Assembly (NCBI RefSeq): GCF_024223415.1
Contig: NZ_CP100500.1
Source: Escherichia coli
GTDB lineage: Bacteria > Pseudomonadota > Gammaproteobacteria > Enterobacterales > Enterobacteriaceae
Direction: 5' to 3' (one strand)
Length of the DNA: 64,000 nucleotides
In this document: positions 56,005-59,569 of the stretch, piece after piece
Layout: each line of letters starts with the position of its first letter
Numbering within the stretch: the first letter of the stretch is position 1
The notes under the pieces: model-generated
The model's input: the letters and a program-made list of their open reading frames with translations, nothing else
The model's database searches: none
Told to the model about the DNA's origin: nothing
Made by a program: the position numbers and the translations under genes

Positions 56005-57288
56005 ATGACAGAAGCGATGAAAATTACCCTCTCTACCCAACCTGCCGACGCGCGCTGGGGAGAAAAAGCAACTTACAGCATTAATAATGATGGCATTACC
56101 CTGCATTTGAACGGGGCAGACGATCTGGGGCTGATCCAGCGTGCGGCCCGCAAGATTGACGGTCTGGGCATCAAGCATGTTCAGTTAAGCGGTGAAGGCT
56201 GGGATGCGGATCGCTGCTGGGCATTCTGGCAAGGTTACAAAGCCCCGAAAGGCACGCGTAAAGTGGAGTGGCCGGATCTGGACGATGCCCAGCGCCAGGA
56301 ACTGGATAACCGCCTGATGATCATCGACTGGGTGCGTGACACCATCAACGCACCGGCAGAAGAATTGGGACCATCGCAACTGGCACAGCGTGCTGTTGAT
56401 CTGATCAGCAACGTCGCGGGCGATCGTGTGACTTATCGGATCACCAAAGGCGAAGATCTGCGTGAGCAAGGTTATATGGGGCTGCACACCGTCGGACGCG
56501 GTTCAGAACGTTCTCCGGTATTGCTGGCGCTGGATTACAACCCAACTGGCGATAAAGAAGCACCGGTGTATGCGTGCCTGGTTGGTAAAGGCATCACCTT
56601 TGATTCTGGCGGCTACAGCATCAAACAGACCGCGTTTATGGACTCGATGAAGTCGGACATGGGTGGTGCGGCAACGGTTACCGGGGCGCTGGCATTTGCC
56701 ATTACGCGCGGACTGAACAAGCGCGTGAAGCTGTTCCTCTGCTGTGCGGATAACCTGATTAGCGGCAATGCGTTCAAGCTGGGCGATATCATCACCTATC
56801 GCAACGGTAAAAAAGTTGAAGTGATGAACACTGATGCCGAAGGGCGTCTGGTGCTGGCCGATGGTCTGATTGATGCCAGTGCGCAGAAACCGGAACTGAT
56901 CATTGATGCGGCGACCCTCACCGGGGCGGCGAAAACTGCGCTGGGTAATGATTATCACGCGTTGTTCAGTTTTGACGATGCGCTTGCCGGTCGTTTGCTG
57001 GCGAGTGCCTCACAAGAGAACGAACCATTCTGGCGTCTGCCGCTGGCGGAGTTTCACCGCAGCCAGCTGCCGTCTAACTTTGCCGAACTGAACAATACCG
57101 GAAGCGCGGCGTATCCGGCAGGCGCGAGCACGGCGGCGGGCTTCCTGTCGCACTTTGTTGAGAACTATCAGCAAGGCTGGCTGCATATCGACTGCTCGGC
57201 GACTTACCGTAAAGCGCCGGTTGAACAGTGGTCTGCGGGTGCTACGGGACTTGGTGTGCGCACGATTGCTAATCTGTTAACGGCGTAA
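56005..57288 (+). CDS. pepB: Peptidase B (M17 leucyl aminopeptidase family)
   Basis: 427 aa; M17 signature NTDAEGRL. Confidence 0.95.
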
Positions 57289-57296
57289 ACTAATAT

Positions 57297-57395
<99 letters not shown>

Positions 57396-57430
57396 CTTGT
57401 GCCCCGAACGTTGAATGAATTGTGGTTCTT

Positions 57431-58207
57431 ATGTCCGAAACAAAAAATGAACTTGAAGACCTGCTGGAAAAAGCAGCAACCGAACCGGCGCACCGCCCGG
57501 CCTTTTTCCGTACTCTACTGGAATCCACCGTCTGGGTGCCTGGTACGGCGGCGCAGGGCGAGGCTGTGGTTGAAGATAGCGCGCTTGATTTACAGCACTG
57601 GGAAAAAGAAGACGGCACCAGCGTCATTCCTTTTTTTACCTCGTTAGAAGCACTTCAACAGGCGGTTGAAGACGAACAGGCATTTGTCGTAATGCCCGTT
57701 CGCACATTGTTTGAGATGACCCTTGGCGAAACGCTCTTCCTTAATGCCAAACTGCCAACCGGTAAAGAATTTATGCCGCGTGAAATCAGTTTGTTGATTG
57801 GTGAAGAAGGGAATCCGCTGAGTAGCCAGGAAGTACTGGAAGGCGGTGAATCGCTGATATTATCGGAAGTCGCAGAGCCGCCAGCACAAATGATTGATTC
57901 ACTCACCACCTTATTTAAAACTATTAAGCCGGTGAAGCGTGCTTTTATATGTTCAATTAAAGAGAACGAAGAGGCACAGCCTAATTTACTTATTGGCATT
58001 GAAGCCGATGGTGATATCGAAGAAATTATTCAGGCGGCGGGAAGTGTAGCAACCGATACATTACCTGGCGATGAACCAATCGATATTTGCCAGGTGAAAA
58101 AAGGGGAAAAAGGAATTAGCCATTTTATTACCGAACATATTGCGCCATTCTATGAACGTCGTTGGGGTGGTTTTTTGCGTAACTTTAAACAGAACCGGAT
58201 AATCTAA
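57431..58207 (+). CDS. sseB: SseB (enhances serine sensitivity)
   Basis: 258 aa from MSETKNELEDLLEKAATEP; synteny. Confidence 0.85.
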   Translation: MSETKNELEDLLEKAATEPAHRPAFFRTLLESTVWVPGTAAQGEAVVEDSALDLQHWEKEDGTSVIPFFTSLEALQQAVEDEQAFVVMPVRTLFEMTLGETLFLNAKLPTGKEFMPREISLLIGEEGNPLSSQEVLEGGESLILSEVAEPPAQMIDSLTTLFKTIKPVKRAFICSIKENEEAQPNLLIGIEADGDIEEIIQAAGSVATDTLPGDEPIDICQVKKGEKGISHFITEHIAPFYERRWGGFLRNFKQNRII

Positions 58208-58419
58208 AATATGCCGCCCCAAAGGGCGGCATTCGGGCTTACCTGCTGCTCTGAAGGTTGTTGACCACCAGTAAATTGTTGCCGGAGAGACTCCGGTTAT
58301 TATTTACCTCGGTTAACAGCGCACCAGAAACAATAAGTACGATACAAAAGCACCGTATCTTCATTGTGCGGTCCATGCGAAGACCGCATCACGACAGCAC
58401 CACTGGCGATATTGCCGCG

Positions 58420-58700
58420 ATAGCAAGCACTGTGGGGTGCCTGCATTTACGGTCATGGAACATCCTTTCCTAAAGCCAGCGCCCGTTTGCGAGACGGCGA
58501 AAAGGGCCGTCAGGAATAATACTCTCATGTTTGAATAATTACTCTGTTTATTATCTTGACATAGTCAGGCATAAAAGAGAGTATTTCAACACTGTGGGGT
58601 GCCTGCGTTGCTCCGGCAACACAAGTCAACCTGCTGGAAAGGCCGCGAACCAGACCAGCAATAAAAAACCGCCAAATTCGGCGGTTTTTTATTTTCGGCG
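58420..58700 (+). ncRNA. ryfA: Putative small RNA locus in the sseB-sseA intergenic region (RyfA-like); boundaries and strand uncertain
   Basis: About 500-nt gap with strong terminator and internal direct repeat of cactgtggggtgcctgc (58431 and 58595); I recall RyfA mapping between sseA and sseB in K-12. Confidence 0.3.
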
Positions 58701-58708
58701 GTTTTTTA
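58663..58708. terminator. Bidirectional rho-independent terminator (sseA on minus strand, intergenic transcript on plus)
   Basis: aaaaaaccgccaaattcggcggtttttt with a second cggcggtttttt copy. Confidence 0.75.
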
Positions 58709-58723
58709 TTGCCTGTAAAAAGC

Positions 58724-59569
58724 TTATTTCAATGGCTCAACCGGTAAATCTGCCCGCGCGCCCCATTCACTCCATGCGCCGTCGTACAGTTTCACGTTTG
58801 GCACATCCAGCGTCGCGAGTGCCAACAAAACCACGGCTGCTGTTACACCAGAGCCGCAGCTGACGATAATTGGTTTGTCATAGCTGACGCCGCGACCAAA
58901 AAATATCGCATCCAGTTCATCGGTCGTTTTTAGTTCGCCTTCGCGCACCAGTTCCGTCCACGGAACGTTCAATGCACCGGGAATATGTCCGCGACGTAAA
59001 CCTGGGCGAGGTTCATCAACTTCTGCGTTAAAACGTGCAGCCGGGCGGGCATCAATAATTTGCGCCGTATTTTCATGGCTTGCCAATAACACATCGGTTA
59101 CTTTCACCACTGCTTCAGGATTAAACGCGGCGTTAAACTCTCCTTCCGGCAGCTCTACTGCACCTTCTTCTAACAACAGATCATCGCGCTGCCAGCCTGC
59201 AAGTCCACCCCCCAGAATCGACACTTTCTCTACACCAAAGGTGCGCAGCATCCACCATGCTCGTGGGGCTGAGAAAAGATTACCTTCGTCATAGACAATC
59301 AGGTGCTTATCCTGGTTAACGCCTAATTCACGCATCGCCACGGCGAACGTTTCCGGGCGCGGCAGCATGTGCGGAAGCGGGGAAGTGTGATCAGAAAGCG
59401 CTTCGATATCAAAAAACACTGCGCCGGGAATATGTCCATTCAGATACTCCTGAGCAACGTTACGATCTTCCTGTCCAGGCGACGCCATGCGGGCATCGAT
59501 AATCTGAATTTCCGGGTCATCAATATGTTCGGCGAGCCAGTCGGCTCCTACAAACCATGTCGTGGACAT
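58724..59569 (-). CDS. sseA: 3-mercaptopyruvate sulfurtransferase (tandem rhodanese domains)
   Basis: 281 aa from MSTTWFVGADWL; active-site CGSGVTA. Confidence 0.93.
   Translation of the reverse strand: MSTTWFVGADWLAEHIDDPEIQIIDARMASPGQEDRNVAQEYLNGHIPGAVFFDIEALSDHTSPLPHMLPRPETFAVAMRELGVNQDKHLIVYDEGNLFSAPRAWWMLRTFGVEKVSILGGGLAGWQRDDLLLEEGAVELPEGEFNAAFNPEAVVKVTDVLLASHENTAQIIDARPAARFNAEVDEPRPGLRRGHIPGALNVPWTELVREGELKTTDELDAIFFGRGVSYDKPIIVSCGSGVTAAVVLLALATLDVPNVKLYDGAWSEWGARADLPVEPLK

Follow-up and report, generated by a model that had tools for sequence, protein, structure and literature searches.

The duplicated motif between sseB and sseA of Escherichia coli as the recognition duplex of a probable timP-timR (RyfA/RyfB) module

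What is encoded in a short intergenic gap that carries the same 17-nucleotide (nt) motif twice? The question arises in a 64,000-nt stretch of Escherichia coli DNA (NCBI RefSeq assembly GCF_024223415.1, contig NZ_CP100500.1), the whole of which we call the window. The gap between sseB and sseA is 516 bp long (58208-58723), as indicated both by the list of open reading frames (ORFs) and by the RefSeq annotation of a 100% identical sequence, that of E. coli SCU-316. The 17-mer CACTGTGGGGTGCCTGC is found exactly twice in the window, at 58428-58444 and 58590-58606, and there is no third copy in the 64 kb, even at two mismatches. The chance expectation for such a repeat is 0.02, and 0 of 100 shuffles contained at least two matches. 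The repeat can be extended to 20 nt with a single A/G difference between the copies, which are direct repeats, 162 bp apart from start to start, that flank both promoters of the locus. An earlier interpretation made from the letters alone, hereafter the sequence-only reading, had delimited the same gap and recognised the duplication. It placed the two copies at 58431 and 58595, 3 and 5 nt away from their actual starts at 58428 and 58590, and proposed that the gap is the locus of RyfA, or timP-timR.

We concur, and estimate at roughly 90% the probability that the sseB-sseA gap is an enterobacterial timP-timR (RyfA/RyfB) type I toxin-antitoxin module. The duplicated motif is an intermolecular RNA duplex as seen on one DNA strand: with the copies in direct orientation on the DNA and the two genes transcribed divergently, their RNAs are complementary. 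All the checks that the sequence-only reading had proposed for this identification turned out positive, namely the Rfam search, the alignment with K-12 ryfA (the gap aligns to K-12-type ryfA loci, annotated as timP in RefSeq) and the searches for a short hydrophobic ORF and for an antisense RNA. Its assignment of the motif to a RyfA-like locus needs to be amended, as only copy 1 lies inside RyfA, on the minus strand, whereas copy 2 belongs to TimR/RyfB. The identities of both genes, their duplex, its covariation and all the published RNA elements are established by computation. The timP/timR locus as such is already known, and the window harbours its CACCC allele.

The toxin gene is the easier of the two to recognise. 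In Salmonella, ryfA encodes a toxic inner-membrane peptide, TimP (Andresen et al. 2020, PMC7667032). The minus strand of the gap, from 58510 to 58206, matches the full Rfam ryfA model RF00126 (positions 1-296 of 296) with 326.1 bits, against a gathering score of 80, and an E-value of 4.2e-91. The 41-residue product of the ORF within this RNA scores 86.8 bits with the NCBIfam profile NF040796, toxic_TimP (cutoff 45), its residues 1-40 aligning with positions 1-40 of 40; no Pfam family exists for TimP. Translation from an upstream in-frame AUG at 58376 would yield an alternative TimP of 45 residues. The peptide starts with MKIR followed by CFCIVLIVSGALL, and its mean Kyte-Doolittle hydropathy is 2.86 for residues 5-17 and -0.71 for the rest; judged from these values, its N-terminus is predicted to be a Sec-type signal or hydrophobic segment. 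Across 18 loci of seven genera, the ORF keeps its hydrophobic N-terminus and a length of 38-42 residues, with indels in multiples of three. The gene ends with a terminator of nine pairs, seven of them GC, followed by a T-run, and a -10-like hexamer (TATTAT, TACTAT, TACAAT, TATGAT or TAAAAT) occupies the same position in 15 loci.

As for the second gene, the gap encodes a divergent small RNA (sRNA), TimR, complementary at its 5' end to the mRNA of the toxin. This 5' end is predicted to consist of repeat copy 2 (58590-58609), after which come two stem-loops and the terminator. The consensus fold of 13 aligned homologues comprises 26 pairs, six of which are compensatory, and the predicted length agrees with the RyfB transcripts of ~100 nt described divergent to each ryfA gene in Shigella dysenteriae (Fris et al. 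2017, PMC5333039). Complementary sequences followed by terminators were also reported upstream of timP in all enterobacteria examined (PMC7667032). In the annotated loci that we examined, RefSeq lists only timP, TimR not being annotated by its pipeline, and in Rfam no family reached the E-value threshold for TimR. The Rfam hits over 58590-58750 (rimP leader, AgrB, RNAI, Phe/Leu leaders and IS128 fragments) were rejected, all of them being below their gathering scores and overlapping the terminator region.

A generic promoter and terminator scan flagged neither the TimR promoter nor the terminator that TimR shares with sseA. The promoter was missed because its -10 element, GAGTAT, matches only three of six positions, and the terminator because its A/T runs are absorbed into the stem. 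For these two elements we relied instead on cross-species conservation and on folding. The pattern TTGAC[AT]-N17-NANTAT precedes the complementary segment in 15/15 intact loci of six genera, with its position and its 17-nt spacing kept and with GAGTAT, GACTAT, CAATAT or AAATAT as the -10 element. In the window it is predicted to end 5 nt ahead of repeat copy 2. Its TTGACA hexamer is the -35-like element picked out by the sequence-only reading, which put it at 58555 instead of 58556-58561. That reading had also described a doubled GC hairpin as a terminator, and rightly so: an A-run and GC stem at 58660-58676 precedes tandem copies of TTCGGCGGTTTTTTATT, and the region folds into strong hairpins on both strands, at -25.2 kcal/mol (z -5.2) on the plus strand and -27.8 kcal/mol (z -4.7) on the minus strand. 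A terminator flanks the complementary segment in every intact locus.

TimR (58590-58609, plus strand) and timP (58428-58447, minus strand) can form a continuous 20-bp duplex with one G·U pair, and 21 of 22 positions are paired in the segments compared. The energy of this cognate duplex is -42.4 kcal/mol, as against -18 to -30 kcal/mol for non-cognate TimR RNAs on the timP mRNA of the window; overall, cognate duplexes range from -33 to -42 kcal/mol and non-cognate combinations from -12 to -30 kcal/mol. We preferred ungapped 22-nt comparisons and short-segment duplexes, as RNAduplex gave inflated, loop-ridden structures on long sequences. In Salmonella, repression of timP by TimR through base pairing was demonstrated with compensatory mutants and in vitro translation (PMC7667032), and in Shigella RyfB1 specifically lowers RyfA1 (PMC5333039).

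To follow the pairing across species, we scanned genome contigs with the pattern of stem-loop 4 (SL4) of the timP mRNA. Among the 120 stretches listed, 105 were chance matches in GC-rich genomes; only 15 Enterobacterales loci were kept, all of them ryfA according to Rfam (180-313 bits) and none from Salmonella. Ten further E. coli loci were taken down the similarity ranking for allele comparison. The covariation set consisted of 15 cognate pairs of 22-nt segments in register, from Escherichia, Citrobacter, Superficieibacter, Yersinia, Rahnella and Erwinia. Intermolecular pairing holds for 90.9% of the cells, a share that drops to 26-49% on sliding the partner by 1-3 nt. Changes on both sides are found at 10 of the 22 pairs, in 52 cells, and none of 500 shuffles reached the observed covariation score. 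All 15 intact loci have the matched pair, and its placement with respect to ORF and promoter is the same throughout.

The 5' untranslated region (5'UTR) of timP contains the elements known to control its translation in Salmonella. There, the Shine-Dalgarno (SD) sequence is masked by SL4, SL2 holds the TimR site, and a 7-bp pseudoknot between SL1 and SL3 is needed for translation and is disrupted by TimR binding (Eleftheraki & Holmqvist 2024, PMC11228461). An interaction between two further segments, sites 2 and 4, frees the SD sequence (Eleftheraki et al. 2026, PMC13000454). The roles that we give to SL4 and pseudoknot site 1 here are taken from the first of these papers, and that of site 2 from the second. 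In the window, SL4 encloses a weak SD sequence (GGA) located 7 nt upstream of the AUG; its seven pairs, GCGGUCU/GGACCGC, are 100% paired in 15/15 loci, an invariance partly built in by the pattern scan, which made use of SL4. The seven pairs between sites 1 and 3 are likewise 100% paired across the 15 loci, three of them with compensatory changes. As for sites 2 and 4, all six pairs are formed in the 15 loci, five of them being invariant, which documents their presence only and not covariation. The SL2 hairpin (RNA nt 67-88, 58423-58444; -12.7 kcal/mol, z -3.1) is 96.7% paired in the same loci.

By analogy, the locus most likely works by the mechanism published for Salmonella. The minus strand would give rise to an mRNA of ~305 nt whose 146-nt 5'UTR folds into SL1 to SL4, with SL4 hiding the SD sequence of timP. 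This mRNA would switch between an inactive fold and an active, pseudoknot-containing one, and translation of the 41-residue membrane peptide would need both the SL1-SL3 pseudoknot (sites 1-3) and the site 2-4 interaction that opens SL4. From a back-to-back promoter, the plus strand would produce TimR, of ~100 nt, which over its first ~20 nt is the reverse complement of the loop and the 5' arm of SL2. Binding of TimR to SL2 in the active fold would destabilise the pseudoknot conformation and block initiation, and the GC hairpin with its A/T runs would end both the TimR and the convergent sseA transcripts. Toxicity, translational repression and the pseudoknot mechanism would thus be carried over to this E. 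coli allele from the Salmonella work (PMC7667032, PMC11228461, PMC13000454). The features of the locus are collected in Table 1.

Table 1. Coordinates of the timP-timR locus and its flanking genes in the window
Feature	Position	Strand	Details	Basis
sseB coding sequence (flank)	57431-58207	+		RefSeq annotation of identical sequence; ORF list
timP mRNA (formerly sRNA RyfA)	58206-58510	-	~305 nt, predicted +1 to terminator U-run	Rfam RF00126
timP intrinsic terminator hairpin	58211-58232	-	placed also to terminate convergent sseB	terminator scan; last helix of Rfam model
timP coding sequence	58239-58364	-	41 residues + stop, MKIRCFCIVLIVSGALLTEVNNNRSLSGNNLLVVNNLQSSR	RefSeq timP in identical SCU-316; NCBIfam
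SL4	58368-58387	-	RNA nt 124-143, GCGGUCU-UCGCAU-GGACCGC	read from sequence
Site 4 (5' flank of SL4)	58382-58387	-	RNA nt 124-129, GCGGUC	
Pseudoknot site 3 (SL3)	58401-58407	-	RNA nt 104-110, GCCAGUG	
Repeat copy 1, TimR-binding site in SL2	58428-58447	-	RNA nt 64-83	repeat and duplex comparison
Site 2	58449-58454	-	RNA nt 57-62, GACCGU	complementary to site 4
Pseudoknot site 1 (upper SL1)	58475-58481	-	RNA nt 30-36, CGCUGGC	
Predicted timP -10	58516-58521	-	TATTAT, 5 nt upstream of Rfam model start	predicted from sequence
Predicted TimR promoter	58556-58584	+	-35 TTGACA (58556-58561), 17-nt spacer, -10 GAGTAT (58579-58584)	conservation
TimR (RyfB-type) antitoxin sRNA	58590-58692	+	~100 nt; 5' end predicted within ~2 nt	13 homologues aligned
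Bidirectional intrinsic terminator of TimR (+) and sseA (-)	58660-58693	both		folding; inverted repeats
17-bp tandem duplication TTCGGCGGTTTTTTATT	58677-58710	both	58677-58693 and 58694-58710, 3' terminator arm	repeat search
sseA coding sequence (flank)	58724-59569	-	stop codon begins 58724	RefSeq annotation of identical sequence; ORF list

Several points weigh against the interpretation as a toxin-antitoxin module. The ascertainment of the loci by the SL4 pattern introduces the circularity mentioned above, the register of the duplex was picked for each locus to maximise pairing, and the covariation set is made up of related sequences. Some covariation could also stem from gene conversion between the DNA copies, without selection at the RNA level, and both transcription starts are predicted positions. 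Toxicity of TimP was shown for Salmonella (PMC7667032), and it is by analogy that the peptide would be toxic here. Furthermore, in the uropathogenic E. coli strain CFT073, ryfA alleles with a destroyed ORF fully complement the phenotypes of a ryfA deletion, and in avian pathogenic E. coli deletion of timR had little effect.

These last observations point to the main alternative explanation, in which the RyfA RNA of E. coli is itself the relevant molecule, a trans-acting, ProQ-associated regulator of genes for stress and virulence, with TimR/RyfB as its partner or sponge and the TimP ORF incidental or rarely used. In keeping with it, deletion of ryfA attenuates the virulence of avian pathogenic E. 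coli and a double ryfA/timR deletion restores the wild-type phenotype, overproduction of RyfA1 in Shigella lowers ompC with no peptide being detected (PMC5333039), and binding of ProQ to RyfA is announced in the title of a paper. If RyfA acted solely as an RNA, it would nevertheless be difficult to account for the length class, the frame and the hydrophobic N-terminus of an ORF kept in seven genera and matched by a curated TimP model. The conservation of all the elements of translation control, namely SL4 over the SD sequence, the pseudoknot and sites 2-4, is likewise difficult to reconcile with an RNA that is purely non-coding. We argue from the conservation of the ORF and of these control elements that the TimP peptide is still under selection. 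We consider this alternative rather unlikely, although the two views are compatible and the same RNA could have both functions.

Might the repeat copies instead be operator sites on the DNA, bound by a regulator of the divergent promoters, with no interface between RNAs? Their disposition as direct repeats on either side of both promoters, at the spacing given above, would suit such a role. However, the core of the motif changes wholly from one allele or genus to another, with the two copies still matching each other, and a protein operator would be conserved in sequence. The differences between copies are mostly compatible with G·U pairing (20 of 31 non-Watson-Crick cells in the 20 core pairs), which is a signature of RNA, and copy 1 lies 64-83 nt inside a transcript. 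The covariation contradicts this explanation, which we regard as highly improbable. It equally contradicts the notion that a local duplication left the repeat behind as a neutral remnant, or that it is a functionless chance match, which is just as improbable: the locus is prone to duplication, as shown by the second TimR-like gene and timP 5' fragment of K-12-type loci and by the 17-bp terminator duplication here, but the repeat has a chance expectation of only 0.02 and is found as a matched pair in all 15 intact loci of six genera, at the same positions and with compensatory change.

If the repeat is the recognition duplex of a timP-timR module, how does it vary within E. coli? Of 5426 complete E. 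coli genomes, 5425 have the locus in some form. A match to the window-type timP site region is found in 546 of them and one to the window-type TimR in 579, i.e. ~10%. Distinct alleles of the recognition sequence can be told apart, and the 5' end of TimR changes alongside. In the window-type allele the timP site is CACTGTGGGGTGCCTGC and the TimR 5' end has the same sequence. In the K-12-type allele, the site is GCTGTGAAACACCTGC and the TimR 5' end GCTGTGAAGCACCTGC, the difference amounting to a G·U pair, and in the Dog168-type allele both are GCTGAGACGCGCTTGC. The sequence-only reading had counted a lack of conservation of the repeat across E. coli, together with the lack of any Rfam or ryfA hit, against its proposal; the exact repeat is not conserved, and what is conserved is the principle of a matched pair, the two copies co-varying. 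A 5-nt variable region of ryfA had previously been reported in four versions, CACCC, CCCCC and CGCGT (ryfA1-like) and TGTTT (ryfA2) (PMC5333039). The RNA of the window reads GCAGG-CACCC-CACAGUG, and hence carries the CACCC pentamer of the ryfA1-like class of Fris et al. 2017 (PMC5333039); the pentamer is TGTTT in K-12-like loci and CGCGT in Dog168-like loci.

Additional TimR-like genes occur in some E. coli loci. K-12-type loci (L002, 1903-2340; L010) have two of them: the timP-proximal one has a non-cognate, CGCGT-type 5' end that forms 18 of 22 pairs, and the distal one has a cognate 5' end that forms 20 of 22. A timP 5' fragment between the two coincides with Rfam IS128 (RF00125; L002, 1992-2200, minus strand), and L010 has an IS1A insertion that separates its two TimR genes. 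In E. coli UID2309220031 (L008, 980-1060), there is a second TimR-like promoter, and the 5' sequence behind it, TGAGTAGACGAGATACACTTGC, is a different one with no match among the timP sites seen; it may belong to an orphan antitoxin with a further specificity. In the locus of E. coli P276M (L011, 1621-2426), sseB is a frameshifted pseudogene and timP is not annotated, although an SL2 site of timP and the promoter of a cognate TimR can still be detected.

The tandem duplication in the terminator arm is also variable. A query that spans it is matched with at least 95% identity in about 135 of 5425 E. coli genomes (~2.5%), and it is absent from the K-12-like, Dog168 and other alleles examined. 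It is a strain-level minority polymorphism, and we see no reason for assigning it a function. The fold of lowest energy on the sseA strand is one in which the outer TTCGGCGGTTTTTTATT copy is paired, giving a 20-bp stem with a 17-nt loop. Of note, the divergent promoters share an inverted repeat, AATACTCTC (58518-58533) and GAGAGTATT (58570-58585), over both -10 regions; the similarity of the -10 elements may alone account for it.

The architecture of the module has a further consequence. Since the recognition duplex is, at the DNA level, a direct repeat flanking both promoters, the module would be able to delete itself: a single recombination between the two copies would remove SL1 and site 2 along with both promoters. 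Three of the 18 species representatives have collapsed ryfA loci, in Citrobacter amalonaticus AUH_CA_2023_1 (L088, 8069-8340, plus strand), Yersinia aleksiciae 159 (L124, 5125-5409, minus strand) and Yersinia similis Y228 (L079, 4554-4837, plus strand). They comprise, in this order, the terminator and the TimR body, both as reverse complements, a single repeat copy, the SL2 3' arm, SL3, SL4 and the timP ORF, which is intact (38-42 residues). They lack SL1 and site 2 as well as both promoters. All three align better with a simulated deletion between the repeats than with the intact arrangement, with scores of 325 vs 236, 251 vs 190 and 223 vs 148. By eye, we found no convincing TimR-type promoter upstream of the single repeat copy, a search for which no systematic test was made. 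In Y. similis, an Rfam Ysr224 match (133.9 bits) is found at 4361-4467 of L079, ~90 nt upstream of the collapsed ryfA locus and on the same strand.

The collapsed loci are either dead or represent an undescribed arrangement. It is tempting to speculate that self-deletion is a recurrent, harmless exit route for the module, or else that these loci are a cis-antisense or read-through-expressed variant of timPR that has not been described. Separately, the co-varying E. coli alleles, with the orphan non-cognate TimR of K-12, could mean that diversifying selection favours mutually orthogonal timPR specificities. We put these ideas forward tentatively, at somewhat less than even odds.

Outside the gap, the spacer between pepB and sseB (57283-57396) gives a sub-threshold Rfam match to naRNA4/CssrE (40.3 bits, gathering score 59.5) together with ES036/CssrF, a pattern such as would be expected of a palindromic element of the repetitive extragenic (REP) type.

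For the annotation of the window, this analysis adds a second gene, TimR, and gives the repeat a mechanistic explanation. Its importance is modest, as nothing in it overturns current understanding. The allele data may help in testing whether timPR alleles are orthogonal, or whether TimP of E. coli is a real toxin.

Among known systems, the closest in organisation is timP-timR of Salmonella Typhimurium SL1344, which likewise has an mRNA of ~300 nt with a structured SL1-SL4 5'UTR and a small ORF with a signal-like N-terminus. It also shares with the window locus a neighbouring divergent sRNA with complementarity to SL2 at its 5' end (over 18 nt in Salmonella, 17-20 nt in the window), the pseudoknot between sites 1 and 3, the site 2-4 interaction and the SD sequence in SL4. 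The Salmonella TimP has 38 residues, versus 41 in the window, with a divergent C-terminal half, and the recognition sequence is different. In SL1344 there is an extra gene, STM2534, whereas the window locus lies directly between sseB and sseA. Toxicity and repression were shown in Salmonella, and would hold for the window allele by analogy.

The RyfA1/RyfB1 and RyfA2/RyfB2 pairs of Shigella dysenteriae occupy the same chromosomal position and produce the same RNAs, CACCC being listed there as ryfA1-like. RyfB of Shigella is similarly ~100 nt long, divergent and complementary across the variable region. In contrast to the single copy of each gene in the window, Shigella has a tandem pair, and RyfA was treated as non-coding (PMC5333039). 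The ryfA locus of K-12, with its IS128 candidate sRNA (RF00126, RF00125), is orthologous to that of the window, timP and its terminator being ~87% identical overall. K-12-type loci differ by their TGTTT allele and by ~300 bp of additional sequence, which contains the proximal non-cognate TimR-like gene, the timP 5' fragment/IS128 and the distal cognate TimR, whereas the window lacks the IS128 insert and has a single TimR, which is cognate.

More remote parallels are offered by tisB/istR-1, shoB/ohsC, zorO/orzO and dinQ/agrB. As is well established and discussed in PMC7667032, these pairs are also made up of adjacent, divergent, non-overlapping genes, with a complementarity of ~18-21 nt located in the 5'UTR of the toxin mRNA. 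They have no sequence homology with the window; the AgrB match in Rfam is sub-threshold (30.7 vs 40 bits) and covers the terminator-containing region. Their toxin mRNAs are activated by nucleolytic processing, whereas timP is reported to switch by structure alone (PMC11228461).

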